From a virus, in the UHGV virus genome UHGV-0239954: DNA of 12,704 bases. The stretch is one strand, 5' to 3'. The first letter of the stretch is position 1. The number at the start of each line of letters is the position of its first letter. The notes beneath the pieces are model-generated. The model worked only from the letters and a program-made list of their open reading frames with translations, was not told where the DNA came from and did not search any database. Shown here one piece after another: positions 1,365 through 12,704 of the stretch. A program made the position numbers and the translations under genes.

Positions 1365-1597
1365 AAAATATTCCATCAATCGTTTGTTAAAAGCGTAGAT
1401 AACCACTTATTTAACAACTTGAAAATAAGGTGTTTTACCTGGGTTGTTACAAAAGGATTGCATTGCGTAAACGCTTTTTATTTACAACAAAATGGGGAAG
1501 TATTACGGCGATTGCGAAAAGTCTGAAGCGATTGAATTAAGATAATATAGAAAATCAGATACAGCAAAAATGGCAGATTGATCAGGTGAAGATAAAT

Positions 1598-1625
1598 TGG
1601 AGCGGGCGAAGGGAATCGAACCCTC
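1598..1625 (-). repeat. Partial tRNA-Gly 3' end (T-arm, 3' acceptor strand, CCA) = attachment-site repeat of an integrated element; not an intact tRNA
   Basis: Minus strand reads GAGGGTTCGATTCCCTTCGCCCGCTCCA: canonical T-loop GGTTCGATTCC, 7-nt acceptor 3' strand and CCA. This matches my recollection of the enterobacterial tRNA-Gly(CCC) glyU 3' end. The complementary 5' acceptor strand (GCGGGCG) and D/anticodon arms are absent from the adjacent ~90 nt, so only a ~28-nt fragment is present. An integrase gene starts 88 nt away. Confidence 0.6.
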
Positions 1626-1713
1626 ATAGCTAACCCATTGAATTGTGAACCAAAATAAGTAATCGCGGTACTTATCCCGGTAGTTGGTAGCGGTAGATTA
1701 CAAGGTAATTACC

Positions 1714-2940
1714 ATGCCAATCAAGAAGACTTCTTATCTTTATGCAAACAAAGATGGGATATTCATCTTTCAAATCTTTATCCCGGTGTACATGCGCCAC
1801 TTATGGCACGGGCGGCGCTCACTCAAGAAATCGACAGGCACGCGGGACATCATGCAAGCTCGCATATTCCGTGACCAATACTTATTAGAGTTCCGAAAGC
1901 TCCAGCTCATGATGAAACCGGATAACCCTATAAACCGGATTCATTCTGCTATTTCAGATCTTCACTTACTGGCGGGAATATCCAGCGACATTACCGCGCC
2001 CGTAACTACTCCAGCAGAACGAGGGAAACCAGCGTCGCCAAAATTGACAGATGTCAGTAAAGAATATGCAGAGCAATACAAAGATCGGCGCTCTTATTCC
2101 ACATTGAGTAAATCCGCTCGCGCTGTATCAGCATTCACTAAATCAACTAAGCGCCCAACAATTACAATAAACGGAATCGGGCGGCGGCTCGTCTCTGACT
2201 TTCTGAAAGCGAACCAAGATAAGTTTTCCCGGCAGACGCTGCAAAACTGGTTAACTTGCTTAGGTACGCTGTACGACTTCGCCCGGCGTAAATATGACAA
2301 TATCGCCCCTGATAATCCCTTTCACGGCCACAATCTGGAAGCCCGTCAGACAAACGAAAGTTACCAGCCGTTTGAACCGCACCAGCTACAGACATTAACA
2401 AAAAAGGCAGGTGACGAAATAAGGGATGTAATAATAATCGGGCTGTATTCCGGGATGCGTCTTGATGAAATAGCCAGCATTAAACGGGATGAGGTTGTCA
2501 CCATCGACGGCGTGCGGTGTTTCTATGTCAGTAAATCAAAAACAAAGGCGGGTATAAGGCATGTCCCTGTACACTCGCTGTTATTTGACATTGTTGATAA
2601 ATACCTCGCGCAAAACAGCGGGGAGTACCTGCTCCCCCAATCCAACAAAATTAAACGCGCGGATGGTAAACGTGGGCCGTGGTATTCTCAGACATTTACC
2701 CGCTTACGTCGCCGGGTACTACCAACAGCCACAGAGCGCCAGTGTTTCCACTCCCTGCGTGGTCACTTCATCACCTGCTTAGACCGGGCAGGTGTACCAG
2801 AACAGCGCATAGGAGCTATTACCGGGCATACAGAGAAAAAGGCAAAGACGGAAGCATTTAAAACGTACAGCCAAGGGGCTGGGATGAAAGAACTATCTGA
2901 ATACGTAGAGCTGGTAAGTTATCCAGAACTTGAATCATAA
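1714..2940 (+). CDS. int: Tyrosine recombinase / phage-type integrase
   Basis: ORF 1684-2940 in the track begins with TTG; first ATG is at 1714, preceded by AAGG 8 nt upstream. The C-terminal half has tyrosine recombinase hallmarks: conserved Arg in GMRLDE, H-x-x-R in FHSLRGH, and C-terminal Tyr candidates in KTY/SEYVEL. Position beside a tRNA-derived att site fits. Confidence 0.88.
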   Translation: MPIKKTSYLYANKDGIFIFQIFIPVYMRHLWHGRRSLKKSTGTRDIMQARIFRDQYLLEFRKLQLMMKPDNPINRIHSAISDLHLLAGISSDITAPVTTPAERGKPASPKLTDVSKEYAEQYKDRRSYSTLSKSARAVSAFTKSTKRPTITINGIGRRLVSDFLKANQDKFSRQTLQNWLTCLGTLYDFARRKYDNIAPDNPFHGHNLEARQTNESYQPFEPHQLQTLTKKAGDEIRDVIIIGLYSGMRLDEIASIKRDEVVTIDGVRCFYVSKSKTKAGIRHVPVHSLLFDIVDKYLAQNSGEYLLPQSNKIKRADGKRGPWYSQTFTRLRRRVLPTATERQCFHSLRGHFITCLDRAGVPEQRIGAITGHTEKKAKTEAFKTYSQGAGMKELSEYVELVSYPELES

Positions 2941-2942
2941 TT

Positions 2943-3371
2943 TCAGGCAGGGTAAATAATCCCCAGCCCGCGATACTGGCGGCGGTATTCTCTGACCAGA
3001 GCATCCGCCGTCGCCCTCGGCAGCTTCGCCATATGCCCGGTACGATAGCCACCCTCGGCAGAATTCGCTGCACGATGTACAACAGCCCGCACGCGCCCGG
3101 TTCTGTGGTCGTGGTCGAGGGTCGTGCTGCTGAACGCAACAGCCCGCCCGGTAACGGCACACCGTCGATACTGATAATTCCACAGAAAGCAACGCACCGC
3201 AGCCACGTCAGCACGGCGCAACTCCAGTCGCCCTGAACCATTCAACAGGAGGCGATACACATCGTCGAATGCAGCAGCGTTTCTAACGCGCTCAGCCAGC
3301 GGCATATTGCCAAGGAACTCCAGATAATCCCGCATTGCTTTTCTTAAAAGTTGGTCTGTCCGTGTAACCAT
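2943..3371 (-). CDS. Recombination endonuclease VII-like nuclease with degenerate zinc-binding site
   Basis: ATG at 3371 with GGAGA 9 nt upstream. Segment CAVTGRAVAFSSTTLDHDHRTGRVRAVVHRAAN matches the EndoVII signature C-x-x-C...DHDH-x-TG-x-VRG-LLC-x-x-CN as I recall it, but three of the four zinc-ligand cysteines are replaced (T, H, A). The catalytic DHDH and Asn are retained. Its stop lies 2 nt from the integrase stop, convergent. Confidence 0.6.
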   Translation of the reverse strand: MVTRTDQLLRKAMRDYLEFLGNMPLAERVRNAAAFDDVYRLLLNGSGRLELRRADVAAVRCFLWNYQYRRCAVTGRAVAFSSTTLDHDHRTGRVRAVVHRAANSAEGGYRTGHMAKLPRATADALVREYRRQYRGLGIIYPA

Positions 3372-3643
3372 GATTCAAAGTCTCCATTGTCAGACACAGC
3401 CCGCTTGCAGGCTTCGTATTCTTCGCGCTGGCGTTGGCATACCAGAGCATAAAGCTCATCAGCCACCGCATTTACGCGCCTATCACTGATACCGTTGCGA
3501 CGCATCTGCCCCAGCAGCTTACGAAATTCAGCCTCAAGCTCAGGCTCTCCTGTATCCATTACCCACTGTTTCAAGTCAGCGAGTGCGCCAGTCATTGGCG
3601 GCGGCTCGATGTACCGCCACCTTAATTTAATCGTCAAAGCCAT
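3344..3643 (-). CDS. Hypothetical small protein (99 aa)
   Basis: ORF 3344-3649; the second ATG at 3643 has GAGGA at about 6-nt spacing, so it is the preferred start. Overlaps neighbours on both sides (operon packing). No recognisable motif. Confidence 0.5.
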   Translation of the reverse strand: MALTIKLRWRYIEPPPMTGALADLKQWVMDTGEPELEAEFRKLLGQMRRNGISDRRVNAVADELYALVCQRQREEYEACKRAVSDNGDFESWLHGQTNF

Positions 3644-4052
3644 AAGCATTCCTCTTTATATCGTTTGCTCTCGCTTCACTGGCTTGTTTAAGCGTCATTC
3701 CTTCGATAGCTATATCCAGCAGTTCCTTTTGCTTACCAGCCAATCGCAAGGCGCTGTCTCTCCAGCAAAGCAGAAAGAAGATTGTCAGCACCTGTTTACT
3801 CAATCCATCCAGAAGATCGCCAAGTCCTTGATCCAGCAGACAGGCACGCCATGCAGCAGCGTGCTGCGTCATAGCACCGACTATCGGGATAGGTGCGCCA
3901 AGCATCGTCGCAAGCTGACTCATAACACTATTAGCATCGCCCGGATGCAGCCGGGGAATAGTCATGCGGCCAGCCTGCGCCAACAGCTCGGCGTACCTCT
4001 GGCGACGTGGGTCATCACATGCCAGCGGTTTAATTGGCTTTTCATCAGCCAT
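3627..4052 (-). CDS. Hypothetical protein (141 aa)
   Basis: ATG at 4052 preceded by GGAGG 9 nt upstream; 17-nt overlap with the downstream gene. No confident family assignment. Confidence 0.55.
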   Translation of the reverse strand: MADEKPIKPLACDDPRRQRYAELLAQAGRMTIPRLHPGDANSVMSQLATMLGAPIPIVGAMTQHAAAWRACLLDQGLGDLLDGLSKQVLTIFFLLCWRDSALRLAGKQKELLDIAIEGMTLKQASEARANDIKRNAYGFDD

Positions 4053-4070: not shown

Positions 4071-4598
4071 TTAGGCAGCCTGCAACAAATCGGCTGGCGT
4101 TGAGGGATGGTATCTGGCTTTAGCTTTTAGATAGGCAGCACGCGCCGCCGCTTCGGTTGTGAACAAGCCAAGGTGATGGCGTACACCATTAACGCGAATG
4201 TAAGCCTCCCATTTACCAGAACAAGAATGACGGCTATATCCCTTCGCTTTGCGGTAGTTGTGCTGATTCTCCTGCGGTGTAACAGCGCGGAGGTTGCCCG
4301 GTCGATTATCGGCACGTACAGCGTTAATGTGGTCGATTTGCAGACCGTCAGGGATACCACCATTAGCAATGATGAAGGCCACGCGATGCGCATAAATCGA
4401 GTGCGTCCTGCCGTCGATGCGGACAGACACGCGCCGATACCCGGCGCTGTCCGTTGCGGTGTCAGCCAGTTCCCCGGCCTCAGCATAAATCCGCTTGTTG
4501 ATTCCAATTCGGTCTACTGCATGGAACAGGCGGCCAGTCTCCGCATCGTATCGAAATAAAGAGCGTAGCAGCTCAGGGGCGTAAGCATCATTAACCAT
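4071..4598 (-). CDS. HNH endonuclease with AP2 DNA-binding domain (phage homing-endonuclease-like)
   Basis: ATG at 4598 with GGAGGGG upstream. N-terminal YDAETGRLFH, HNH core IDHINAVRADNRPGNLRAVTPQENQHN and C-terminal AP2-like SGKWEAYIRVNGVRHHLGLFTTEAAARAAY match the HNH_3 + AP2 architecture common in phages. Confidence 0.85.
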   Translation of the reverse strand: MVNDAYAPELLRSLFRYDAETGRLFHAVDRIGINKRIYAEAGELADTATDSAGYRRVSVRIDGRTHSIYAHRVAFIIANGGIPDGLQIDHINAVRADNRPGNLRAVTPQENQHNYRKAKGYSRHSCSGKWEAYIRVNGVRHHLGLFTTEAAARAAYLKAKARYHPSTPADLLQAA

Positions 4599-4614
4599 GA
4601 CTCAGCCCCTCCAG

Positions 4615-5610
4615 TTACACAGCTTGTCGGAAATTGATAACGCAGTCAGGGCGGCGCAGTCCAACATTGAACAGGCGATATGAGTCCATCACCATCGTCA
4701 TTTCGCGCTCATCATCCCACTGGCGATTGATAACGCTCTGCGCTTCGACTGTCACAAGTACAGACGCAGGCCGGAACAGCGTCGCCCGCGTCAGCGCTTC
4801 CTCTGAGGTAACGTCATAATCAGCGCCCAGTTCATGCCCGGTAATAGCTTCCTGCGGGTAACTGTTCAGCTCAATGACTCGTACCCCAGCGACATAGCCA
4901 ACTCGACGCCATGCGTAATCGTTGCCACTATCCCGGCTGTAACGGACGTTCATCAGCTTCTTATGTTCCATCAGGATGCTGAACCAAGCCGGGTCGATAA
5001 GCAGTACCAGCTCGGCCACCGGAATATCTTTCTCAGTGAGAAAGCGATTAGCAGCCGCTTTTACGACGTGAGCCAATTCGTTTGCGGCGTCCTCTTCGCT
5101 CCCCGCTGTCAGGTCGAGCGATACAACGTTATCCGTTAGTGGGTTAAACGTTGGTTGCAGTGTCGGCGGCGGTACAAAGTCAGTCGCTTTGATTAGCTGG
5201 ATGGTGTGCGCTTCGTCGTAGAATTTAGCGTGAGCAGTACCCATATTGCGGCTCAGCTCTGCGCGAAAGGTGGGCGCTGTCCAGTCGTCCTGATAGTCAA
5301 TCGGAATGCGGATATAGCTCAGCGTATCCACAGAGATAATCAGCTTATCCGACTTAACAGCGGTAGGCTCCAGCGATTGCCCTGCGGTTCTGCCCTTCAC
5401 CTCCAGATCACCACTCAGGCGATCAATGCGGTATTGGTTGCTGGCTTTCAGCGGCCTGTATGTAGACAGCCCCTCTGCCAGAAATACGGATTTGGACTCT
5501 AAACGGGTCTGGACATCCCGGTCATAAGCCTCGATGTGAATATCATTGTCGGATTCCACCCCGCCATAATGTGGGCGAAACAGATCGGGACTGTACGAAG
5601 TATCAGTCAT
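4615..5610 (-). CDS. Major capsid protein-like (T7 gp10-like, HK97-fold family), 331 aa
   Basis: ORF 4615-5655; preferred start is ATG at 5610 with TAGGAG 8 nt upstream (the two upstream ATGs lack a well-spaced SD). Segments KLIISVDTLSYIRIPIDYQD, LTEKDIPVAELVLLIDPAWFSILME and RPASVLVTVEAQSVINRQWDDE align in order and spacing with T7 gp10A segments KVITIDGLLTADVLIYDIED, LTKNYVPAADRVFYCDPDSYSAILAA and HRSAVGTVKLRDLALERARRANFQ as I recall them. Length is similar to gp10A. Confidence 0.6.
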   Translation of the reverse strand: MTDTSYSPDLFRPHYGGVESDNDIHIEAYDRDVQTRLESKSVFLAEGLSTYRPLKASNQYRIDRLSGDLEVKGRTAGQSLEPTAVKSDKLIISVDTLSYIRIPIDYQDDWTAPTFRAELSRNMGTAHAKFYDEAHTIQLIKATDFVPPPTLQPTFNPLTDNVVSLDLTAGSEEDAANELAHVVKAAANRFLTEKDIPVAELVLLIDPAWFSILMEHKKLMNVRYSRDSGNDYAWRRVGYVAGVRVIELNSYPQEAITGHELGADYDVTSEEALTRATLFRPASVLVTVEAQSVINRQWDDEREMTMVMDSYRLFNVGLRRPDCVINFRQAV

Positions 5611-5669
5611 AAACAAAACTCCTACGTAGGTTGATGAAGCCCGCGCCATCGTCATGGCACAGACGTGCG

Positions 5670-5694
5670 GAATCCTCCCGCCGAGGCAGGATTC
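5670..5694 (-). promoter_or_regulatory. Stable stem-loop in the leader of the capsid gene (possible RNA processing or stabilising element)
   Basis: GAATCCTGCC...GGGAGGATTC inverted repeat (9 bp with one mismatch, 5-nt loop), about 60 nt upstream of the capsid start inside the only sizeable intergenic gap (5611-5808) of the operon. No U-tract follows, so it is not a typical intrinsic terminator. Confidence 0.35.
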
Positions 5695-5808
5695 AGAACG
5701 GTATCGATTAAAGGGATGAGGTGCCCCGAAATGGGCGTTTTGAGGCCAGAGCTGGCGCGGTTCTCAGAGGTTAGTGCGCGTGAAGTAAGGCGAACGTATT
5801 ACCTTGCA

Positions 5809-6222
5809 TTAGTGCGCACTCATACGCGCCATGTTCAACACCTTCCGCACAGAGGTTTCAGACACGCCAACCTTACTTGCAATGTAACGATTCTTCTGGC
5901 CTTTTGCAGAGCGCTCGATAATGTCAGCGCGTACTGCCTCAGTGATCACCTTGCGGGGTCTGGCTCGATTCTTCTCGTGCCGTTCACGTTCGCGCATCCG
6001 CTCGGCCATCTTCGGCGGCAGCACAGGGGAAAGCCCACGGCTAACGCCAGAGGTGCGGGTGTCGGACGTGGCAGCTCGGGCAACGATATAAACCACTTCG
6101 TCTGGATTGAAAACGTGCTGCACACGCTCAGGGTAAATGTGGTCGCATCTACCCAGCGGCAAGGCGAAATCCGGGCGCACGTCAGCGACACGCTCCACGG
6201 CATGGAAATTACAGGTACTCAT
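5809..6222 (-). CDS. Small DNA-binding protein with C-terminal Hin/resolvase-type HTH; possible small-terminase-like or regulatory protein
   Basis: ATG at 6222 with GAGG 6 nt upstream. C-terminus RARPRKVITEAVRADIIERSAKGQKNRYIASKVGVSETSVRKVL fits the GRPRK...IA...GVS..TV.R.L pattern of Hin/resolvase HTH domains. No resolvase catalytic domain is present. Confidence 0.6.
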   Translation of the reverse strand: MSTCNFHAVERVADVRPDFALPLGRCDHIYPERVQHVFNPDEVVYIVARAATSDTRTSGVSRGLSPVLPPKMAERMRERERHEKNRARPRKVITEAVRADIIERSAKGQKNRYIASKVGVSETSVRKVLNMARMSAH

Positions 6223-6361
6223 TAGGAACCTCGGTTAATTAAAAACAGGCTTTTAGATGCCGCGCAGAATGCAGCTTGCGGGGACTCATGCGCTTAGATT
6301 GGTGTGGTAGTACCGGGTTGGAGCGCACTCAGTCTTGCAGGGCGCATTCCACCGTTGGGCG

Positions 6362-7048
6362 TTAGCGACCAGCACGTTTGCCAGCGGAGCGCTGCGCAAC
6401 CAGAGCGCGGTATTGAATGTCGTACTGGCGATGGCCGGGGCCATACCCTGATTGCTGCGCCCACTGCGAAAGCTGATCATACGCTGCAATAAACTCAGCA
6501 TGAGACATACCAACAGGTTGCGAGGCAGGCTGGCCGTATGGGTTCCCCTGTGATGGGACATAACCAGTCGCAGTGCCTGCGGCCATACGCTCTTGCAGAT
6601 AATGAACCGCCCGCTGCATCTGCGCAGGGTCGCCAGACATAACCATCCGTTCAAGGGTTGATTGCGTCCCGGCGTCGAGCGTGCCAGCGTACTGCAACAT
6701 CGCGTCAACTGTACCCTGCCCTAGCTGGCTTTCGACAGACTGGTGAAACTGCCCCATCAGCCCATGAAGTTCAGGAGTCAACTCAACAGTAGTGCCATCC
6801 TGTAATTGCAGTGTGTCGCCCACTTGTGCAGCAACATCAATCTGCTGGTCTTGCTGGTTGGCAAAGTTACTTTCGCTCCAGCTTTGATTAATGTTCGCTG
6901 GCTGCGTTTTCAGGAAATCAGCATCAGGTGTTGTCTGGTCGAATCGGCTAGCGCCGTTGTCAGCACCTACAGGTGCGGCCATGTACGGCGATTGCTGCGG
7001 CGCAGTATCAGCGCCCGAAAGATATGGATTAACATTCTGGTCAGCCAT
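6362..7048 (-). CDS. Acidic Gln-rich low-complexity protein; candidate capsid scaffolding protein
   Basis: ATG at 7048 with AGAGG 7 nt upstream; start overlaps the upstream stop (TAATG). Composition is Q/D/E/A/G-rich with no hydrophobic core pattern, and it sits upstream of the capsid gene, analogous to T7 gp9 upstream of gp10. Function is inference only. Confidence 0.6.
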   Translation of the reverse strand: MADQNVNPYLSGADTAPQQSPYMAAPVGADNGASRFDQTTPDADFLKTQPANINQSWSESNFANQQDQQIDVAAQVGDTLQLQDGTTVELTPELHGLMGQFHQSVESQLGQGTVDAMLQYAGTLDAGTQSTLERMVMSGDPAQMQRAVHYLQERMAAGTATGYVPSQGNPYGQPASQPVGMSHAEFIAAYDQLSQWAQQSGYGPGHRQYDIQYRALVAQRSAGKRAGR

Positions 7049-7050
7049 GA

Positions 7051-7290
7051 TTATGCAACCTCTTGTGATGTAACTCGGCGATGTGCCAGTTCAAGTAAAA
7101 GCATGTGTGCGTGTACGCAGCGTGGGGGAATCATCTTCTGACCGTGGTACGCCTTGCAGAGATCTTGTCTGTCAATTTGATACACACGAGCCAGATCGAT
7201 TTGGCGTAGATTCAAGGCATCAGCAATGAATTTCAGTTGTTGCCCGCACTCCACCGCGCGGCGCGGCTCCATTAAAATGATGGTGCTCAT
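7051..7290 (-). CDS. Small HTH DNA-binding protein (Cro/XRE-like), 79 aa
   Basis: ORF 7051-7332; preferred start is ATG at 7290 with GAGGA 8 nt upstream. Segment QQLKFIADALNLRQIDLARVYQIDRQDLCKAYHG has helix-turn-helix character. Confidence 0.55.
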   Translation of the reverse strand: MSTIILMEPRRAVECGQQLKFIADALNLRQIDLARVYQIDRQDLCKAYHGQKMIPPRCVHAHMLLLELAHRRVTSQEVA

Positions 7291-7304
7291 GAAATAATCC
7301 TCAG

Positions 7305-7538
7305 TTAGATAAGGCCATGACGACGCAACCAACGTCGCTCGCCAACGGAGCCACGCGGTCGCTGCCTTGGGTTCTGGTTTGGTGCTTGGCCGGGATCAGT
7401 TCGTCCTTCCCCGGACAGGTTCTGTGTCAGCACATCCCAGCCGCGTGATTCAAACGGGGCGTATCCCTCGCGCTGTTCGTCAAGGTTCACATAGAGATCA
7501 GGGTTAACGGCAGGGTGCAGCGGTTCGTTCTCTGCCAT
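7305..7538 (-). CDS. Hypothetical small protein (77 aa)
   Basis: ATG at 7538 overlaps the upstream stop (TGATG); the track start at 7541 is a GTG. Pro/Gly/Arg-rich, no recognisable motif. Confidence 0.4.
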   Translation of the reverse strand: MAENEPLHPAVNPDLYVNLDEQREGYAPFESRGWDVLTQNLSGEGRTDPGQAPNQNPRQRPRGSVGERRWLRRHGLI

Positions 7539-8098
7539 CACTTAGCCCCGAATCGCGTGTTAACATCTTCCAAAATATCGGGGTAGCTCCAGCGGTTACG
7601 CATCAGGCGCAGGACATGAGCAACAGCCTCAACAGAGATCCCAAGCTCTCCAGCGATCTCGGTTTGTTTCCAGCCGAAGCGCTCCAGCTTGTGCATCTGA
7701 TCGAGGTCGGCGCTCAACAGGCGGCGCATCGTCTGAGGTTTCTCAGGCTTCGCTTTAACAGCTTTCGGCATCGGGTGGGTGTGGGCGTTGCTAAAGCGGG
7801 AATGTGCGATAGCCAGCACAGTCTCAGGGCGAATCAGCATATCGCGGGCAATCATAAACTCTGTATCGCGGTGCAGCTTGCCGGGCTTATAGCGGCTGCG
7901 GATGGCGTTGTACTCCGCCAGAGTGATATCAGCATCGTCTTTCCAATTTTCGGCCAAGTCATCGACATAGACGCCACGGATTACAGCATCAATATCGGTC
8001 AGGGTATGACCTGTCTCCGCTGCAATCTCTTCATTGTTCTTTAGGTGCTTATGAGCCAGCGTGTTAATGCGCTGGATATCGGTAATGCTCAAAGTCAT
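7538..8098 (-). CDS. DNA-binding protein with C-terminal sigma-70 region 4 / LuxR-like HTH (regulator or small-terminase-like)
   Basis: ATG at 8098 in an ATGA overlap with the upstream gene. C-terminal RRLLSADLDQMHKLERFGWKQTEIAGELGISVEAVAHVLRL resembles sigma region 4 / GerE-type HTH. Confidence 0.6.
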   Translation of the reverse strand: MTLSITDIQRINTLAHKHLKNNEEIAAETGHTLTDIDAVIRGVYVDDLAENWKDDADITLAEYNAIRSRYKPGKLHRDTEFMIARDMLIRPETVLAIAHSRFSNAHTHPMPKAVKAKPEKPQTMRRLLSADLDQMHKLERFGWKQTEIAGELGISVEAVAHVLRLMRNRWSYPDILEDVNTRFGAK

Positions 8099-8271
8099 AC
8101 ATTAAACTCCGAATCAAAATTGATCTGGTCAGTAACCAGCGAATGAATCAGCGCAAGGCTGGATGCGGTATGTGTGCCCGACTTGCGGGCGTTGTCGTAC
8201 ATGAAGCGGGCTACACGTTGATATTTCTCCGGCAGCGTGGCGAACCATTGCCGGAACTGTTCGGGGGTCAT
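8095..8271 (-). CDS. Hypothetical small protein (58 aa), translationally coupled
   Basis: Not in the ORF track (under 60 aa). ATG at 8271 overlaps the stop of the upstream gene as ATGA, and its own stop overlaps the next start as ATGA. Sequence MTPEQFRQWFATLPEKYQRVARFMYDNARKSGTHTASSLALIHSLVTDQINFDSEFNV. Confidence 0.45.
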   Translation of the reverse strand: MTPEQFRQWFATLPEKYQRVARFMYDNARKSGTHTASSLALIHSLVTDQINFDSEFNV

Positions 8272-8477
8272 TGGTCGTCATCCTCCGGGAACACGTTGTT
8301 AAAGGTTGTATCAGGCGAGTCGGCGGCGTTCTGCTTGAGGAAGTTCACGCAGGATGACAACTCGGCAGCAGCCATGCGTGACTCTCCCGCCTCGTCCTCC
8401 TTAAGCCTGCGCGTCAACGCACCCAGCAGCAGGGTTTTTAGTTCCCATGCTCCGGCTTCAAATTCAGATTTCGTCAT
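8268..8477 (-). CDS. Hypothetical small acidic protein (69 aa)
   Basis: ATG at 8477 in an ATGA overlap with the upstream stop. Acidic C-terminus PEDDDQ. Confidence 0.5.
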   Translation of the reverse strand: MTKSEFEAGAWELKTLLLGALTRRLKEDEAGESRMAAAELSSCVNFLKQNAADSPDTTFNNVFPEDDDQ

Positions 8478-8905
8478 TGGTGGTTATCTCCAGTTAGTCC
8501 CATTGCACGCAAGTGTTGAATGACCTCGGCATGTACTGGTTTTGGTAAAAACAGGCGACGCTGCACGGATTGAAGTATCTCGTCGCGCGTCTTGTCGGCA
8601 GGGTGAACAGTCCCATTAAAGACCTCACGAGCCATGCGATAGGTCGGCCAAAGGCGAGCGCCATCCTCCCTGCGACGGAATCTATTCAGCACAGCGGCCA
8701 GACACTCCCACGGCTCACAGTTATTGAGCAGGCAATACCGCTGTAGCGGTGTCGTTGCCCGGCGCATGATGGCTTCACGATTAAGGGTCTGAATATGACG
8801 TTCGGCCAGTCCGTCGAATGAATAGCCGTTCAAAGCAAAGGCGAGCTGCGCATTAAGCAGGGCGTCAGAACGCCCCGCACGATGCAGTGCGGTTTCATCA
8901 GGCAT
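8474..8905 (-). CDS. Hypothetical protein (143 aa)
   Basis: ATG at 8905 with GGAG 9 nt upstream. Contains a Cys cluster CLLNNCEPWEC. No confident family. Confidence 0.55.
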   Translation of the reverse strand: MPDETALHRAGRSDALLNAQLAFALNGYSFDGLAERHIQTLNREAIMRRATTPLQRYCLLNNCEPWECLAAVLNRFRRREDGARLWPTYRMAREVFNGTVHPADKTRDEILQSVQRRLFLPKPVHAEVIQHLRAMGLTGDNHQ

Positions 8906-8948: not shown

Positions 8949-10838
8949 TCAGAGGAAGCGGGAGATGTAACCCCAATTGCAGTTTTCAGGGCGGTACAAC
9001 GCTGCCAGCTCATCAGGTACACCGGACGGCACCGGGGCAGAGTCGGCGTCATAGGTGATGGGGTCGCCATACAGAGCCAACGATGACCACAGCAGAAAAG
9101 CACGGGCAGGTTGACCGTCACGCCCGGCACGTCCGATCATCTGAACTAAATCGGGCAGGTCTTCGGGAACATAAGTGACAATTACGTTACGCACGCCAGA
9201 GATATCAGCCCCCAGCCCGAAGGCTTTAGTAGCAATCAGAACCGCGCCGGGCGTGCTGGCAAACCACGCAGCGTTAGCGTGACGCTGGTCGCGGCTCAGT
9301 CGCTCAACGTCAGAATGGTAAGGCCGGGCGCGGTCTCCCAGTTCGTTGAGATACGCATACAGCATCTTGATACTGTCCACCATCACCAGCGTCTTCTCAT
9401 CCAGCGGGAGGGCATCGACCAGACCAACGGCAGCCCGGCGCGTAGTTGCGCACTGCTGAACAGGAATAAGCTGGATGTTTTCACGGGCAGCACTGGCGCG
9501 GTAGGTGAGGAACTCGCCACGACAGCCAAGCTCTTTCATCAAGCCAGACTCATCACCTTTTCGCAGGGTCGCAGTAAACGCGCACCGCTGAGCATCCGGG
9601 AAGGCATTTTTCAGGGTGTGTTTCATTGCAGGGAAAGCGTCCCGGAACTCCCATTCATCAACGGTATGAACCTCGTCAATGATAAATCTGTCCACACCAG
9701 CGGCCATCAGCGCAGCCAGCACCTGATTGCCCGGCACCAGATGCTCAGGTGAAACTACGGCAACGTGGAAAGCGCCAGCAGCCAACCCCGCAAGCTGTTG
9801 CGCATTGCGTCGCCTCGGCAGCTTGTCGCCAAAGGCAACAGCGTGAACGCCAGTTTCTAGCAACTGCTGTAACACCTGCTGCTTGATGGTGTTTGTAGGC
9901 ACAACAATAACGGTCAGACCGTCATCAGAATCAGATTCAAATTGCAGGGCATAGGTGAATGCAGCCGTCTTTCCGTACCCGGTTGGCAGTACGGCCAATA
10001 CATCGCGGTCACGGGCAAATACGGCGGCAGCTACGTCCTGCTGGCCGGGTCTCCAGTCTCTGCCATCTAGCGGTGGTAACGGTACGAATGCCGGGCGGTC
10101 GCATTGCTCCAGCTCGCGGAACCTGTACGGCGCGGTAACCAGCGGCGGGATGGACGGCGGCAGGCCAGCACCCCCAACGTCACAATGCAGATTCAGCGTA
10201 TTGAATTTATCATCCGTGGGTTTCAGCTCACCGCACCACAACTGACGGAAAGCCGGGCAGTCACCCAGTCGCGTAAAGTCAGCATGGCGCATAGCTTCCA
10301 GCTTGCTCATGCCGCGACTGATACGACGCACGATCTTCTCATCGCAAATCAGAAACTCACGGCAGGCTTTGAGGAAGGCATTCTGCCCGGTTGTCGCTTC
10401 CGGGATGGAGTGCTCGCGCGGTTTAAGCGCAGCGTCATCAACGCGAACGCCGGGGAAATCTGGCGGCAGCGGCTCGGCGTACCGGGCAGGCTTTTTGTTT
10501 AGCCACATCTCCAGCTCAGCGCGGCGGCAGTGGATTGCATCGCCCGGCTGGATAATCTGGCGCAACCCGGCATCAGCGCGGCGGGAATGTCGCTTGCGGC
10601 CAATTCCATTCGCCTCTTTCCATTCACGGAACGACATAACTGAACCATCTGCATTGTAGAAATACTGCCCGGAAACGGTGTTAAGCGCTGCCTTCACTGG
10701 TCGCTGTTTAACAGGGCATAACTTGGAATGAGGTATAACGATCTTATCCGCAACCAGTTGCTGAGCATCCGCAGGCTCGGTGTTCAGCGGTTCGGCGTCA
10801 GCGGCCAGCGTAAGCAAGCGGTTTAAATTGGTTGGCAT
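8949..10838 (-). CDS. RecQ-family SF2 DNA helicase with ~275-aa N-terminal extension; putative replication protein of the element
   Basis: ATG at 10838 with GGAG upstream. Ordered helicase motifs match RecQ: RPGQQ...LPTGYGKTAAF (motifs 0/I), TVIVVPTNTIKQQV (Ia), FIIDEVH (II), FTATL (III), IATKAFGLGADISGVRNVIVTYVPEDLPDLVQMIGRAGRDG (V/VI). No RQC/HRDC region follows. The N-terminal part has no clear match apart from an excisionase-like AIHCRRAELEMWL segment. Confidence 0.88.
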   Translation of the reverse strand: MPTNLNRLLTLAADAEPLNTEPADAQQLVADKIVIPHSKLCPVKQRPVKAALNTVSGQYFYNADGSVMSFREWKEANGIGRKRHSRRADAGLRQIIQPGDAIHCRRAELEMWLNKKPARYAEPLPPDFPGVRVDDAALKPREHSIPEATTGQNAFLKACREFLICDEKIVRRISRGMSKLEAMRHADFTRLGDCPAFRQLWCGELKPTDDKFNTLNLHCDVGGAGLPPSIPPLVTAPYRFRELEQCDRPAFVPLPPLDGRDWRPGQQDVAAAVFARDRDVLAVLPTGYGKTAAFTYALQFESDSDDGLTVIVVPTNTIKQQVLQQLLETGVHAVAFGDKLPRRRNAQQLAGLAAGAFHVAVVSPEHLVPGNQVLAALMAAGVDRFIIDEVHTVDEWEFRDAFPAMKHTLKNAFPDAQRCAFTATLRKGDESGLMKELGCRGEFLTYRASAARENIQLIPVQQCATTRRAAVGLVDALPLDEKTLVMVDSIKMLYAYLNELGDRARPYHSDVERLSRDQRHANAAWFASTPGAVLIATKAFGLGADISGVRNVIVTYVPEDLPDLVQMIGRAGRDGQPARAFLLWSSLALYGDPITYDADSAPVPSGVPDELAALYRPENCNWGYISRFL

Positions 10839-10859: not shown

Positions 10860-11297
10860 TTAAATACTACGCGCCCAAGCTAAATCTTCGGGTGTCCGAC
10901 TTTCGATTAACGCTAACTGCCAGCGTAAGTAATCCTCATGTTCTTTGGTGTATCGGGGAATACCTATAGGATTTTTCACAGCGTCCGGGTTAGTCCTCGC
11001 GACTTCCCTGCAATCTCGGTCGAAAGCCCAGCGGGCAACTTCCACCGATTCGTAATCCGTAAATCGGTACGGCCTTGTGCGGGAACGTACACGCCAGACA
11101 ACTTGCCCTAATTCGTGGATGTATATGCCGCAAAGTTCATCCGGGCTTGGGTGATACAATGGCTCCCCATAATTCTGGCGCATGAACTTCACAAACTTTT
11201 GATTGCGGCGGGCACGCCGTGCTTTTTCGCGTCGCTCCTCGGCTTCATACTCTTTTTGAATGGCGGCACGGTCTACCGGGATAAGTGTTTTGCTCAT
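10860..11297 (-). CDS. Hypothetical protein (145 aa), first gene of the leftward operon
   Basis: ORF 10860-11474; preferred start is ATG at 11297 with GGAGA 9 nt upstream. The longer N-terminal extension would run through the iteron-like repeats. Basic N-terminal region (EERREKARRARRNQK); no family recognised. Confidence 0.55.
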   Translation of the reverse strand: MSKTLIPVDRAAIQKEYEAEERREKARRARRNQKFVKFMRQNYGEPLYHPSPDELCGIYIHELGQVVWRVRSRTRPYRFTDYESVEVARWAFDRDCREVARTNPDAVKNPIGIPRYTKEHEDYLRWQLALIESRTPEDLAWARSI

Positions 11298-11366
11298 ACA
11301 GTGATCTCCAGAAATTAATGTGAGTTTGGAACGGGGCGCAGGACGGAAGCGCCGGGAGTGTGGCAG

Positions 11367-11719
11367 TCTGTCCTCCTTAGTAGTTACCATCATTGCAATG
11401 GCGTCGGAGTTCTGTCTCTCTTTAGTAGTGATCTTCATCCAGTAATTTGGATTAAATGCAGACACGGCGGGCATTGCAGCGAGATGGAGAGTAGGCGGGC
11501 TTGCGGTTTCAGTCTGCCTTAGTACAAGTTTCTAGTGGTCGGTAGCCTTTCCCTTATTAGTAGCTCTCATTTATCCGGGGCTTGTCTTCCCACACAGTAG
11601 CCGTCTTCTAAAGCAACCACACCACAATCCACTACTGGCAAGGAGTTAGCAGACACGGTGATGTAGGCTACTCAAGTGTGGATTTGTAGGCGTTTTATAG
11701 TATCTGTCCTTCTTATTAG
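11367..11719. repeat. Iteron-like direct repeats (consensus about TCTGTCCTYCTTAGTAG), candidate origin or operator array
   Basis: Copies at 11367-11383, 11411-11428 and 11703-11719, with diverged copies at 11513-11525, 11546-11563 and 11581-11600. All are in the same orientation with irregular spacing, immediately upstream of the operon and next to an AT-rich tract (about 11725-11830). Confidence 0.5.
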
Positions 11720-11831
11720 ACACCTTTAAATTTCATTAATAAATACAGTTAGTTAAACGGTTATCTTTATTACTTATAAATTTCACAGATCAATAAATTA
11801 AAATTGATCGGAATTATCAGCTTTAATTTTC

Positions 11832-11851
11832 TTGACAGCTATTTGTATAAT
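11832..11851 (+). promoter_or_regulatory. Promoter-like hexamers TTGACA / TATAAT (non-canonical 8-bp spacing)
   Basis: TTGACA at 11832-11837 and TATAAT at 11846-11851 are perfect consensus hexamers but too close to act as one sigma70 promoter. Each could pair with a weaker partner. No plus-strand ORF follows. Confidence 0.2.
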
Positions 11852-12029
11852 GGTTTTAAGAAGTTGTATCGGAGTGAGCGACTGGCAGTGAGCGTAGCGA
11901 ACGATAAGCCAGTCGGCGAAGAACGAAGAGTATGAGATGACTTGTCATCGAATACGATGAGTGATTGAGCGGTACGAACGGAGATACGCTGTATAACAGT
12001 TAGAACAGTTAACAAGCTGATTAATGCTT

Positions 12030-12194
12030 TCAATGATTATCTGAATCAGTGTTATCAATTCCGAAATAACTCTTCCTCTCCTGTATTGATTCAATCATTT
12101 CTTTCATTTCAAGAATCACTACCAGCTCAGCTAATAACCGTCTCAGTTCAACATTTGAATCATTAGCACGACACTTATTTTCTGAGTATTCCAT
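12030..12194 (-). CDS. Hypothetical small protein (54 aa)
   Basis: Not in the ORF track (under 60 aa). ATG at 12194 preceded by GGGAG 8 nt upstream. Sequence MEYSENKCRANDSNVELRRLLAELVVILEMKEMIESIQERKSYFGIDNTDSDNH. Lies between the GC-rich structured region and the iteron region. Confidence 0.3.
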   Translation of the reverse strand: MEYSENKCRANDSNVELRRLLAELVVILEMKEMIESIQERKSYFGIDNTDSDNH

Positions 12195-12299
12195 ACGGTC
12201 AACTCCCTACGGTATAAGTCCATTCCAATCCGTTCACAGATTACATTGCTGAATGATCATCAGACAAGTGGCAGTCATCATCACCAAGTTAGAGTCGTC

Positions 12300-12600
12300 T
12301 CGCTACATATCCCCGCCGGATTGCCAGCGCGGCTAACACGGTTGTGAGGAGCGCCGAGCATCACAGCGGACGCAGGCCGATGAACGAGCCGTAGGTGAGT
12401 GAAAGCGGACTCGCGGACGCGAGAAGCGCAGCAGCAGGCGGCGACTGATAAACGAGCCAGACAGGTGAGTGCAAGCAGGCGTAAGCACTGCACCGTTGAG
12501 AGGTGTGGAGACGGCGGAACGTCTCCGCGTTAGGGAGGTGGATTTGGGGAGGATGTGCAAGGCACACCTCGCTCCACCCACGGGGTGTCGGTGGGTAGGG
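12300..12600. ncRNA. GC-rich structured non-coding region with paired direct repeats and hairpins (candidate regulatory RNA or leader)
   Basis: All three plus-strand frames contain stops; the minus-strand ORFs overlap in multiple frames and have R/S/P-rich translations. Two ~28-nt direct repeats (12369-12396 GATGAACGAGCCGTAGGTGAGTGAAAGC; 12437-12466 GATAAACGAGCCAGACAGGTGAGTGCAAGC). Perfect hairpin GGAGACG-GCGGAA-CGTCTCC at 12498-12517. Further stems at 12453-12483 and 12563-12587. Confidence 0.25.
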
Positions 12601-12704
12601 GTATAACGCTAATTGGTTAAGTGTACACATGTACGCTGAAATCATTAAAAGCCTATAGAAACAGCATGTAACCCAGCACCACGACATAACCAATTATCGT
12701 TGAA

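Follow-up and report, generated by a model that had tools for sequence, protein, structure and literature searches.

A chromosomal island of Enterobacteriaceae with its own phiKMV-type capsid gene, a candidate satellite of virulent podophages

Organization and distribution of the island

The window analyzed here (12,704 nt, from UHGV-0239954) holds most of a 14.56-kb integrative island located at the 3' end of a tRNA-Gly gene. One island end lies at 1597..1620 on the plus strand, where the att core TTGGAGCGGGCGAAGGGAATCGAA is a copy of the tRNA-Gly 3' end. In strain 5735 this 23-24 nt core is found on both flanks of the island, 14,559 bp apart. In O103:H2 12009 the annotated tRNA-Gly feature begins with 23 nt equal to this core; since that feature is on the minus strand, the core is the 3' end of the tRNA. 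Across the islands the att repeats measure 23-34 nt and derive from tRNA-Gly or tRNA-Leu. Seven islands span 14,471-15,158 bp from att to att, and their integrases and cargo differ. An ORF-poor, partly AT-rich region (11475..12704; GC 0.40-0.48) with only short and scattered repeats lies upstream of the operon. Past the window end the island runs on for about 3.45 kb, with a serine recombinase and cargo ahead of the second att; in strain 5735 the resolvase, a pair of small ORFs and this att were identified there. Near-perfect T7 promoters were seen on an element neighbouring the island.

The island is carried by 59 of 5426 complete E. coli genomes, EPEC E2348/69 among them, and is also present in Kluyvera, Enterobacter, Kosakonia and Trabulsiella; one of its protein families, the small-terminase (TerS)-like family described below, was found in Cronobacter, Citrobacter, Salmonella and Phytobacter as well. 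Across genera the capsid proteins are 93-97% identical, with a capsid dS of only 0.14-0.40. A survey of 100,044 species-representative genomes gave four sizeable capsid matches, all of them in islands of this type, and a fifth match that is a 452-bp contig fragment. Two IMG/VR contigs of the island type are computational predictions, and a 15.2-kb SRA contig is an integrated copy with att sites at both ends.

The tyrosine integrase (1684..2940, plus strand; DUF6538 N-terminus and Phage_integrase domain; PF00589 E=8e-10, phrog_1 E=1e-32), whose start in RefSeq is at about 1714, is 53% identical to that of the divergent island L007 but only 38% identical to the integrases of relatives that integrate at leuX. 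All other genes described here are on the minus strand. An endonuclease VII-type junction resolvase (2943..3371; phrog_423 E=1.4e-13; PF02945 26.9 bits, above cut-off) matches endonucleases of phage Lidtsur and many phiKMV-like phages and is kept in all island lineages. Two conserved ORFs of 101 aa (3344..3649; 88-91% identical in relatives, 42% in L007) and 141 aa (3627..4052; 86-90% identical in relatives) have no family match. Directly downstream of the capsid gene is an HNH homing-type endonuclease gene (4071..4598; HNH_3 and AP2-like; PF13392 E=2e-17, phrog_99 E=1e-50). Its homologues (43-45% identity) adjoin the capsid genes of KP34-like Klebsiella phages; among the islands the identity is only 63-65%, and in L007 and L018 the capsid gene has no HNH gene after it, that of L007 being located elsewhere.

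On the far side of the structural genes lies a small protein, HTH-like by eye (7051..7332), whose likely true start gives 79 aa (7051-7290), as in RefSeq; its position is kept in all lineages and it has no family match. It is accompanied by a conserved 78-aa ORF with a GTG start (7305..7541; annotated in E2348/69; 85-96% identical in relatives, 42% in L007) and a 186-aa protein (7538..8098; phrog_3855 E=5e-4; 42% identical in L007) with a C-terminal HTH of ParB/sigma-r4-like type that is sub-threshold (HTH_ParB at 20.1 bits, HTH_23 at 19.5 bits, each under its cut-off). Conserved ORFs of 58 aa (8095..8271) and 143 aa (8474..8905) flank the TerS-like gene. A 629-aa RecQ-family DEAD/DEAH helicase (8949..10838; PF00270 E=1.5e-19, PF00271 E=5e-14; recQ_fam 131.7 bits, below cut-off; dN/dS about 0.15) probably serves replication. 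It matches the PADLOC 'DpdF' model PDLC02858 with 1053 bits, and no other Dpd genes are present. The last ORF (10860..11474, 204 aa; 145 aa in its shorter RefSeq form) is poorly conserved among the islands.

Capsid, scaffolding and small-terminase-like proteins

The sequence-only reading had singled out three minus-strand genes, and all three are present as ORFs (4615-5610, 5809-6222 and 6362-7048). The first (4615..5610) certainly encodes an HK97-fold major capsid protein, as that reading had claimed. With the ATG at 5610 it is 331 aa long; a start at 5655 would give 346 aa, but the alignments with phage capsids begin at M1 of the 331-aa form, which is also the RefSeq call. The protein matches phrog_267 'major head protein' (E=7e-70) and the solved capsids 23sf (gp17, E=1.6e-79) and 8eld (HRP29, E=2.8e-75). 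Its identity is 56% with the Lidtsur capsid (E=1e-131) and, over its full length, 55-56% with the capsids of Bonnellvirus coliphages, which are phiKMV-like Autographiviridae. A structure prediction had been proposed as a check of the fold, and the best Foldseek matches of the model (mean pLDDT 58) are indeed the HRP29 and PhiM1 capsids. The alignment with T7 gp10A did not hold up at the sequence level: the best segment in pairwise BLASTP is 24 aa long and falls short of significance (E=0.043), T7 gp10 is not among the PDB sequence matches at E<1, and the likeness to T7 (3j7w) is confined to the fold (Foldseek E=1.7e-4, TM 0.40, rank 15). The capsid belongs to the T7 supergroup (Autographiviridae), and within it to the phiKMV/Bonnellvirus type, not to that of T7 gp10. 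Island capsids are only 48-56% identical to the nearest phage capsids and form their own clade apart from them with a bootstrap of 100/100. In three island lineages that share one common architecture they are only 58-61% identical to each other, and their dN/dS is 0.07-0.2. This is an old clade, sister to the capsids of the virulent Bonnellvirus podophages.

Upstream of the capsid gene is a conserved non-coding gap of exactly 198 bp (5611..5808), with a strong TAGGAG Shine-Dalgarno sequence (5618-5623) 8 nt upstream of the capsid ATG; both had been noticed from the sequence. The stable stem-loop ascribed to the gap holds locally: a hairpin at 5670-5694 on the minus strand (GAATCCTGCCTCGGCGGGAGGATTC, -12.6 kcal/mol) is the best 25-nt fold and is matched by only 2 of 200 shuffles, but folding of the entire gap is no better than that of its shuffles (z=-0.47). 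Because the hairpin is invariant in the relatives, it shows no covariation. In three of four comparisons the gap is more conserved than synonymous sites (divergence 0.010-0.026, against a dS of 0.10-0.25 in the flanking genes), the exception being E2348/69 (divergence 0.091). No sigma-70 consensus site was found on its capsid-gene strand. A search for helper-type promoters gave no T7-, T3-, SP6-, K11- or K1F-like one with at most 6 mismatches of 23; a motif conserved after the Bonnellvirus RNA polymerase gene is not enriched in the window. It is plausible from its conservation that the gap is linked to high-level or separately regulated expression of the capsid.

Between the gap and the scaffold gene lies a gene for a basic protein of 137 aa (5809..6222; pI 10.3) with a C-terminal three-helix HTH. 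The 'Hin-type' assignment of the HTH stands only in a generic sense, as HTH_23 scores 19.8 bits, under the cut-off of 24.6, and HTH_7 gives no match. The family comprises 12 clusters, all from Enterobacteriaceae islands. The AF2 model is confident only at residues 95-136, and Foldseek finds a weak likeness to LuxR, NarL and resolvase DNA-binding domains (best E=0.046). In the variable slot between scaffold and capsid, L018 has a related protein of 173 aa, whereas the occupants in L014 (115 aa) and L007 (160 aa) are different proteins. The product is an island-specific DNA-binding protein. Its suggested role as a small-terminase analogue found no support, the family being confined to islands and no terminase appearing among the top 50 Foldseek matches.

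The third gene (6362..7048) encodes the acidic, Gln-rich protein of 228 aa (pI 4.6, 14% Gln) that had been called scaffold-like, and by profile comparison it is a shortened scaffold homologue. Residues 115-227 match positions 168-279 of the 280-position profile phrog_1018 'head scaffolding protein' (E=5e-6), and hhalign aligns residues 120-227 of the island family with 307-410 of the 411 in Bonnellvirus scaffolds (E=2e-5, probability 77%). The likeness thus covers only the C-terminal ~100 residues and is seen only with profiles; pairwise BLASTP against phage scaffolds is not significant, and an exhaustive phmmer search recovered only island-type relatives. No similarity to phage scaffolds is detectable in the N-terminal half, which leaves compatibility with the portal unsupported. 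The gene has a dN/dS of about 0.2.

A better terminase candidate than the HTH protein lies outside the span of the sequence-only reading. It is a 69-aa protein (8268..8477) resembling T7 gp18-type small terminases, with 48% identity to the Lidtsur TerS over 44 aa (BLASTP E=4e-6). The copy in the window matches PF11123 at E=0.0026, below the Pfam cut-off, and phrog_891 at E=0.02; 14 of 25 family members match PF11123 at E<=0.01 (best 2e-8), and hhalign of the family to phage TerS gives E=9e-6 (probability 83%). Only ~33-44 residues match, the phage protein being 101 aa long. The gene exists in two allelic types of ~75% identity and has a dN/dS of 0.11-0.15.

A putative satellite of podophages

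The island has no gene for a portal, large terminase (TerL), tail, internal virion protein, RNA polymerase or DNA polymerase. When 17 Lidtsur proteins were compared with 12 island sequences (11 loci and the window), only the capsid, TerS and endonuclease VII found matches; the portal, TerL, tube, nozzle, internal proteins and tailspike did not, nor did the RNA polymerase, DNA polymerase, primase and helicase. Every copy examined has intact capsid, scaffold and TerS-like genes, and purifying selection acts on all three. Because these selected genes are kept and the portal, packaging motor and tail are absent, the island is most likely a podophage satellite, and the satellite context proposed by the sequence-only reading agrees with the integrase, the tRNA-derived att, the narrow size range and the selected capsid clade. 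We consider it reasonably probable that it represents an undescribed family of satellites of virulent phiKMV-like podophages and builds its own capsid shell; no published description of such an island was found. Bonnellvirus genomes measure 40.8-42.5 kb and known satellites have roughly a third of their helpers' size (PMC9618062).

In the proposed life cycle, infection by the helper would lead the island to excise via its own integrase and replicate with its own helicase. Host shut-off and breakdown of host DNA are quick in T7-type phages, and a chromosomal satellite would have to outrun them. The island would express its own capsid protein together with the short scaffold, which keeps the capsid-binding C-terminal domain but has no counterpart of the phage scaffold's long N-terminal half; the HTH protein and the conserved gap would most likely control capsid-gene expression. 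Capsid and scaffold may then assemble on the helper portal into shells sized for ~15 kb, so that the island's own shell would probably be smaller than the helper's. This length is ~0.35 of a 41-42.5 kb helper genome, a ratio as in T=4 versus T=7 satellite-helper pairs, and the genome ratios of P4/P2 and SaPI1/80alpha match it. The TerS-like protein would steer the helper's large terminase onto island DNA, endonuclease VII would resolve branched DNA and helper tails would finish the particle. By taking portal and terminase away from the helper, the island would interfere with it too.

Interference could also be the sole function. The capsid, short scaffold and TerS-like protein would then be dominant-negative decoys that co-assemble with or titrate the invader's capsid, portal and terminase and so abort podophage morphogenesis, protecting the population while the island is not packaged and spreads by other means. 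Defence-type cargo in the variable slot of L100 (an NmeDI-like restriction enzyme and a methylase), the two nucleases aboard (HNH and endonuclease VII) and the truncation of scaffold and TerS-like protein relative to their phage counterparts, a trait that poison subunits should have, fit such a role, and neither a helper promoter nor a packaging signal was found. However, a length of 14.5-15.2 kb in seven islands with differing cargo is difficult to account for unless packaging sets a limit, a complete capsid gene (93-97% identity, dN/dS ~0.1) with scaffold, TerS-like, resolvase and helicase genes exceeds what decoys need, and the recent spread across genera requires a transfer route. We regard this explanation as unlikely, though interference and satellite transfer are not mutually exclusive.

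Less likely still is the decaying remnant of a temperate phiKMV-like prophage, or a piece of phage picked up by an integrative element, with structural genes that are non-functional or hitch-hiking. The integrase and structural genes are laid out as in a deleted prophage, the HNH gene beside the capsid gene looks phage-inherited, and T7-like phages with an integrase do exist according to reference 30 as cited in PMC9618062. Yet the frames are intact in all copies, purifying selection extends to the helicase, the same reduced architecture recurs in three lineages whose capsids share only 58-61% identity, the island capsids are monophyletic, and no full prophage with a related capsid was found in the 100,044 species genomes or the E. 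coli set. That the element makes DNA-filled heads alone and steals only tails, possibly from unrelated phages, is highly improbable: it has its own capsid protein and scaffold, and capsids set apart from those of phages as in capsid-forming PICIs (cf-PICIs; PMC13230959; bioRxiv 10.1101/2022.09.08.507074), but with neither portal nor TerL it is unable to package DNA alone, it also has no head-tail adaptor or connector and no prohead protease, and its largest unassigned ORF, of 204 aa, makes a portal or TerL hidden in the small ORFs implausible by size.

Comparison with known systems

The presumed helpers, Bonnellvirus and other phiKMV-like phages (Lidtsur, forsur, J8-65), share with the island a full-length capsid homologue, the scaffold C-terminal domain, a gp18-type TerS and endonuclease VII, and in both the scaffold gene is upstream of the capsid gene. 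The island differs in its lack of portal, TerL, tail tube and nozzle, internal proteins, tailspike and both polymerases, in the lengths of its scaffold (228 versus 411 aa) and TerS-like protein (69 versus 101 aa), and in having the HTH gene and the 198-bp gap between scaffold and capsid, where the phages have 20 bp. It is integrated via a tyrosine integrase, whereas the phages have no annotated integrase gene.

cf-PICIs parasitise temperate phages. As exemplified by EcCIEDL933, they are likewise ~15-kb chromosomal islands in Enterobacteriaceae with an integrase at one end and their own major capsid protein in a clade distinct from phage capsids (bioRxiv 10.1101/2022.09.08.507074; PMC10085698), although that capsid belongs to PF05065 (PMC13230959). 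Their genes also cover TerL, TerS, portal, protease, HNH and head-tail connectors, and tails are all that they steal; our candidate satellite would need to steal portal, motor and tail, because only the T7-supergroup capsid, scaffold and TerS-like protein are present. Other satellites are the proteobacterial PICIs with a 'capsid morphogenesis' gene (CapsidPE, PF03864) and their plasmid version PISP, which combine a helper-type capsid homologue with a small terminase and also have no portal, TerL or tail (PMC10085698; PMC13230959). In those elements a protease accompanies the capsid homologue, which is lambda gpE-like, and AlpA-type regulators and a primase-replicase belong to the core; the island has instead a T7-supergroup capsid, a scaffold in place of the protease and a RecQ-like helicase. 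No SatelliteFinder core genes were found in it by Pfam, PHROG and NCBIfam scans.

PLE of Vibrio cholerae and PICMI of Vibrionaceae are chromosomal satellites of strictly lytic phages (PMC10002752; PMC10803314), the way of life proposed for the island, but their helpers are not Autographiviridae, a family that PMC10803314 does not mention. PLE encodes no major capsid protein and remodels the ICP1 coat protein with TcaP, and PICMI has no capsid genes at all. By analogy, the closest functional counterpart of the short island scaffold is SaPI1 CpmB, an alternative scaffold of a satellite that carries the capsid-binding C-terminus of the helper scaffold (PMC5644958). CpmB and P4 Sid remodel a capsid protein encoded by the helper, whereas the island brings its own capsid protein too, and its small capsid is putative.

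Capsid, scaffold and the region between their genes

The major capsid gene of the island, the 14.56-kb integrative element that lies mostly inside the window and continues about 3.45 kb beyond its end, occupies positions 4615-5610 on the minus strand. It is predicted to encode 331 amino acids from an ATG at 5610, with a TAGGAG 8 nt upstream of this start codon. The product matches PHROG 267 ("major head protein", E=7e-70) and, in sequence searches of the PDB, gp17 of entry 23sf over residues 1-324 (E=1.6e-79), the capsid of Shigella phage HRP29 (8eld, E=2.8e-75) and that of Pectobacterium phage PhiM1 (8vb0, E=8e-61). Homology to solved HK97-fold capsids spans the whole protein; no current Pfam model matches it significantly. 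The best matches among 50,697 phage records are the capsids of the Bonnellvirus coliphages forsur, glasur, Lidtsur and J8-65, which are phiKMV-like Autographiviridae, with 55-56% identity, followed by KP34-like, Friunavirus-like and phiKMV-like phages with about 45%. In an NJ tree, the island capsids form one clade (bootstrap 100/100) that is sister to the Bonnellvirus-like phage capsids. The AF2 model (mean pLDDT 58) is confident for the spine helix and A-domain and poor for the N-arm, E-loop and P-domain; its best 35 Foldseek matches in the PDB are all phage capsids, followed by encapsulins. Judged by its homologues, the protein is an HK97-fold major capsid protein of the phiKMV-like Autographiviridae type. 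The sequence homology carries the fold assignment, for which the AF2 model alone would be weak.

The sequence-only reading had rightly taken this product for a major capsid protein of the T7 supergroup, as the matches to PHROG 267 and solved phage capsids indicate. Its alignment with T7 gp10A could not be reproduced: BLASTP returns one 24-aa segment (E=0.043), and the sequence search of the PDB brings up no T7 gp10 entry at E<1. The likeness to T7 gp10 holds at the level of the fold (Foldseek match to 3j7w, E=1.7e-4, TM 0.40, rank 15) and not at that of the sequence. The gp10A identity was dropped because the pairwise BLASTP was not significant, and the protein was placed with the phiKMV-like capsids.

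Upstream of the capsid gene and on the same strand, with an HTH gene and a gap in between, lies a gene (6362-7048, minus) for an acidic protein of 228 amino acids (pI 4.6, 14% glutamine). Residues 115-227 match the C-terminal end of PHROG 1018 ("head scaffolding protein", E=5e-6), and in an hhalign comparison of seven island with four Bonnellvirus scaffolds the last 100 or so residues align up to both C-termini (E=2e-5, probability 77%). This homology bears out, for the C-terminal domain only, the earlier suggestion that the acidic, Gln-rich upstream protein is scaffold-like. Full-length correspondence with a helper-type scaffold is absent (228 aa vs 411 aa in Lidtsur): the pairwise comparison with the Lidtsur protein is not significant, and the N-terminal 115-120 residues have no match in the scaffold comparisons. 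An exhaustive phmmer search over 1.84 billion representatives recovered only nine relatives, all island-type, and no solved structure was found for the island's scaffold profile or for that of its small-terminase (TerS)-like protein. We read the 228-aa protein as a short scaffolding protein that appears to have kept its C-terminal domain, with the long N-terminal half lost or replaced. By analogy with other scaffolds, the C-terminal domain would bind the capsid.

The intervening gene (5809-6222, minus) encodes a basic 137-aa protein with a DNA-binding-type HTH that was recognized from sub-threshold matches (HTH_23, 19.8 bits, under the 24.6 cut-off). Only a C-terminal three-helix HTH is modelled with confidence, and for it Foldseek gives a weak mixture of LuxR/NarL and resolvase DNA-binding domains (best E=0.046). 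It had been described as a Hin-type HTH, but Pfam yields no match to HTH_7 (Hin/resolvase type) and no fold match is specific to recombinase domains; the model suggests only a generic three-helix HTH and not a recombinase-specific one. Homologues form 12 clusters confined to this island family. The role of small-terminase analogue once proposed for this protein was rejected, as neither its homologues, its structure model nor the fold search shows a link to terminases; the protein is probably regulatory. The slot between the scaffold and capsid genes is variable: the divergent lineage L018 has a related 173-aa protein there, and in L007, another such lineage, and the island copy L014 an unrelated N-terminal domain is found, with and without the HTH, respectively.

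The gap between the capsid and HTH genes is exactly 198 bp long (5611-5808), the length first reported. The stable stem-loop described in it survives as a local hairpin at 5670-5694 (-12.6 kcal/mol), the best local fold in the gap being matched by 2 of 200 shuffles; over its full length, the gap folds no better than shuffled sequence (z=-0.47). The hairpin shows no covariation, which is uninformative because it is invariant in the relatives. A structured RNA across the whole gap was rejected, given folding at shuffle level and the absence of any Rfam family within the window. Divergence of the gap is 0.010-0.026 in three of four relatives, 4-10 times below the 0.10-0.25 at synonymous sites of the two flanking genes (alignment A7). 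The gap of EPEC E2348/69 has no such excess of conservation (0.091) and carries a 20-bp insertion just before the SD. The low divergence points to a constrained non-coding element. No sigma-70 consensus promoter was found on the coding strand, and terminator-like sites occur at chance level.

Element structure and distribution

Apart from one 4.4-kb element that it does not contain, the window matches the E. coli 5735 chromosome with 99.9% identity. An att core of 23-24 nt at 1597-1620 adjoins the integrase gene, is identical to the 3' end of tRNA-Gly and recurs 14,559 bp away in strain 5735. Relatives with another integrase (38% identity), for example that of E2348/69, which measures 15,061 bp, use the 3' end of tRNA-Leu (leuX). 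Seven att-to-att lengths were obtained (14,471, 14,559, 14,585, 14,803, 15,061, 15,157 and 15,158 bp), a narrow range despite different integrases and cargo. No excised or circular form was recovered: a 15.2-kb SRA contig is an integrated copy bounded by att repeats, and the IMG/VR hits are predictions.

Cargo is carried in the slot between the endonuclease VII and integrase genes. In the window this slot contains no gene (2940/2943); one island copy (L100:11528-13679) has a C5 methylase and a restriction enzyme of NmeDI-like type there, and other copies have unrelated hypothetical genes (L003:6401-7303; L004:6640-7284). The total length is still 14.5-15.2 kb.

The capsid-scaffold block is present in 59 of 5426 complete E. 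coli genomes. Island copies were also recovered from Kluyvera, Enterobacter, Kosakonia and Trabulsiella, and the TerS-like family extends to Cronobacter, Citrobacter, Salmonella and Phytobacter. Modules are mosaic among near copies, with capsids 93-97%, helicases 67-86% and HNH proteins 63-65% identical. Two further lineages, L007 from Enterobacter hormaechei and L018, keep the same gene order with capsids only 58-61% identical. Reading frames are intact in all copies examined.

At the tRNA-Gly site of strain 5735 (L001:7520-29081), a 4.4-kb element, the 14.56-kb capsid island and an identical second 4.4-kb element stand in tandem, all separated by the same att core; the source of the window lacks the first 4.4-kb copy. 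The 4.4-kb element encodes a 544-aa integrase and a DUF4145 protein. Outside the window, it carries a tandem pair of T7 RNA polymerase promoter matches (22/23 each) in front of two genes of unknown function (L001:9435-9566; second copy near 28470-28579). A related element at the corresponding tRNA-Gly att site of E. coli O103:H2 12009 (L102:3559-3690), likewise with an integrase of about 540 aa and a DUF4145 protein, has a perfect 23/23 match and one of 21/23, with a KilA-N gene downstream. The promoter regions of the two elements are only 82% identical, yet the promoters are kept, and 44 of 5426 E. coli genomes carry such a region. These matches suggest a family of chromosomal cassettes that T7 RNA polymerase would switch on, and the tRNA-Gly elements may be defence or satellite cassettes triggered by that enzyme; we found no paper on them. 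At window positions 1-1364 (minus), a ygeQ-like frame runs past the stop of the strain 5735 gene toward the window start, as it does in strains where a longer GH15 glycoside hydrolase is annotated.

Other genes of the island

A 69-aa protein encoded at 8268-8477, outside the span 4615-7048, resembles small terminases of the T7 gp18 type by BLASTP, PF11123 and PHROG 891. It is 48% identical to the Lidtsur small terminase over 44 residues (BLASTP E=4e-6). PF11123 (DNA_Packaging_2) scores 18.2 bits on the window's copy (E=0.0026), under its 27.5-bit cut-off, and PHROG 891 is weak too; among 25 members of the family, 14 reach E<=0.01 with PF11123 (best 2e-8). The family profile aligns with phage TerS by hhalign (E=9e-6). 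Across these comparisons only about 33-44 residues align, and the protein is without the C-terminal third of phage TerS. The candidate terminase subunit would be this protein, elsewhere than the HTH gene. Its gene occurs as two allelic types, one 100% identical to that of the window and the other about 75%, which are shuffled relative to near-identical capsids (island copies L003, L004 and L012-L015), and the adjacent 143-aa ORF (8474-8905) varies from 66% to 94% identity among island copies. The two alleles together with the variable ORF may represent alternative packaging specificities.

Endonuclease VII is encoded at 2943-3371, as in phiKMV-like phages, and an HNH/AP2 homing-type endonuclease at 4071-4598. 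In KP34-like Klebsiella phages, homologues of the latter, 43-45% identical, directly precede or follow the major capsid gene (L074:9575-9985; L046:2545-2955 and 4377-4727; L084/L096:9586-9984); the nearest coliphages, Lidtsur and forsur, have no HNH gene beside the capsid gene. By these positions, the island HNH has the behaviour of a homing endonuclease linked to the capsid gene, and it could putatively cut HNH-less helper genomes near the capsid gene.

Profile matches identify a RecQ-family helicase at 8949-10838. The PADLOC model PDLC02858 ("DpdF") matches it end to end with 1053 bits and so seems to derive from the helicase family of this island; with NCBIfam DpdF the score is 108 bits vs a cut-off of 550. 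A Dpd (7-deazaguanine) defence system was rejected, as the helicase alone matches and no DpdA/B/C or other dpd gene is present in the island, where PADLOC marks only the helicase and the HNH protein (the latter as a homing endonuclease). Automated defence finders may mislabel this satellite-like island.

The 1.2 kb or so upstream of the island operon (11475-12704) is ORF-poor and partly AT-rich (GC 0.40), with short scattered repeats only, and relatives have a similar 1.2-kb gap between helicase and resolvase. The region may serve as an origin, in regulation or as a packaging site; no specific element was found within it.

When 17 Lidtsur proteins were compared by tblastn with 12 island sequences (11 fetched loci and the window), only capsid, TerS and endonuclease VII matched. 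The portal, large terminase (TerL), tube, nozzle, internal proteins, tailspike, RNA polymerase, DNA polymerase, primase and helicase of Lidtsur had no match in these sequences. Outside the capsid gene there is no nucleotide similarity between the island and the Bonnellvirus phages.

A satellite reading and its place among known systems

In keeping with the definition of a satellite, the island has its own integrase and att sites and lacks a complete virion gene set. Its size (14.5-15.2 kb) is 0.34-0.37 of that of the nearest phages (40.8-42.5 kb), with these assumed to be the helpers. A ratio of about 0.35 is typical of satellites with T=4 instead of T=7 shells. Satellites have been described as "about one-third" of the helper genome (PMC9618062). 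Among island copies, dN/dS is 0.07-0.2 for the capsid and 0.11-0.15 for the TerS-like gene; scaffold and helicase have values of about 0.2 and about 0.15, respectively. Since its subset of morphogenetic genes is under selection yet incomplete for a particle, and its size is narrowly held at about 0.35 of the source phages, the element is most likely a phage satellite, a new family of a known kind of element. The satellite context first suggested fits the comparative gene content, att sites, size and selection; what changes is the capsid type, which is that of phiKMV and not of T7 gp10.

Beside the observed gene identities, element structure, distribution and selection stands a whole mechanism, covering induction, assembly, shell size, packaging and transfer, that we favour with some reserve: a phiKMV-like helper would supply portal, terminase and tails to an island with its own capsid and short scaffold. 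A phiKMV-like virulent podophage would infect an island carrier, and the island would excise and replicate after infection. Its capsid protein and short scaffold would assemble on the helper portal into smaller shells, the TerS-like protein would recruit the helper's large terminase to island DNA, endonuclease VII would clear branched DNA and helper tails would complete the particle. For a link to the helper's polymerase, no promoter motif emerged from k-mer repeats of two Bonnellvirus genomes, scans with the T7, T3, SP6, K11, gh-1, K1-5 and K1F promoter consensus found nothing in the island or eight relatives, and a motif conserved after the Bonnellvirus RNA polymerase gene is at chance level in the window.

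Among the alternatives, a decoy island that acts by interference only is unlikely, though the best placed of them. A prophage remnant is very improbable, being contradicted by the selection on the genes and by the old, monophyletic capsid clade. A self-sufficient head maker like the cf-PICIs is contradicted by the gene content and is hardly credible.

As a satellite, the island might tentatively be placed as the first such family of virulent T7-supergroup podophages, in which the own capsid and a shortened scaffold would build T=4-sized shells on a stolen helper portal, a truncated gp18-type TerS would redirect the helper's large terminase, the helper tail would be borrowed, and the variable HTH protein and conserved gap would form a helper-sensing switch. 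Podophages of the T7-like and phiKMV-like types serve as standard models and are often considered for phage therapy against E. coli, Klebsiella, Enterobacter and Cronobacter. If the island is a satellite of such phages, even fast, strictly lytic phages with their own RNA polymerase have dedicated molecular parasites, and besides the remodelling of capsids (P4, SaPI, PLE) and the formation of full heads (cf-PICI) there is a third, intermediate way of morphogenesis, in which the shell is the satellite's own and portal, motor and tail are stolen. It would also offer a natural system in which to study how the T number of the T7 capsid lineage depends on scaffold length and capsid sequence. The island's defence cargo and movement between genera make it relevant to gene flow among clinical Enterobacteriaceae and to their phage resistance, and its presence in the widely used EPEC E2348/69 makes the satellite hypothesis directly testable.

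We found no description of this island family or of any Autographiviridae satellite in a literature search of incomplete coverage, so an earlier description is possible. The closest relatives of the island's structural genes by descent are those of Bonnellvirus phages. Known satellites differ in gene content. P4-like satellites have Psu, Delta, Sid, AlpA, Epsilon and the alpha primase, none of which is matched by an island ORF (PHROGs, Pfam, NCBIfam). The PICI core of SatelliteFinder comprises an AlpA/Stl/MerR regulator, a primase-replicase and a PICI-type TerS, and the island falls outside it: Pfam, PHROGs and NCBIfam give no match to AlpA, MerR or a primase, a RecQ-like helicase stands in place of the primase-replicase, and the TerS-like protein belongs to the T7 gp18 type. 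Major capsid genes are absent from VEIMEs. The short scaffold recalls CpmB of SaPI1 (PMC5644958), and the inferred virulent helper recalls PLE and PICMI (PMC10002752, PMC10803314). Proteobacterial PICIs and PISPs carry a lambda-type capsid homologue and a small terminase (PMC10085698, PMC13230959), and cf-PICIs a full head and packaging module, stealing tails only (bioRxiv 10.1101/2022.09.08.507074); of the latter's own TerL, portal, head-tail adaptor/connector and prohead protease the island has none (Pfam and PHROGs; tblastn with Lidtsur portal and TerL). Its way of working lies between that of the proteobacterial PICIs and PISPs and that of the cf-PICIs.
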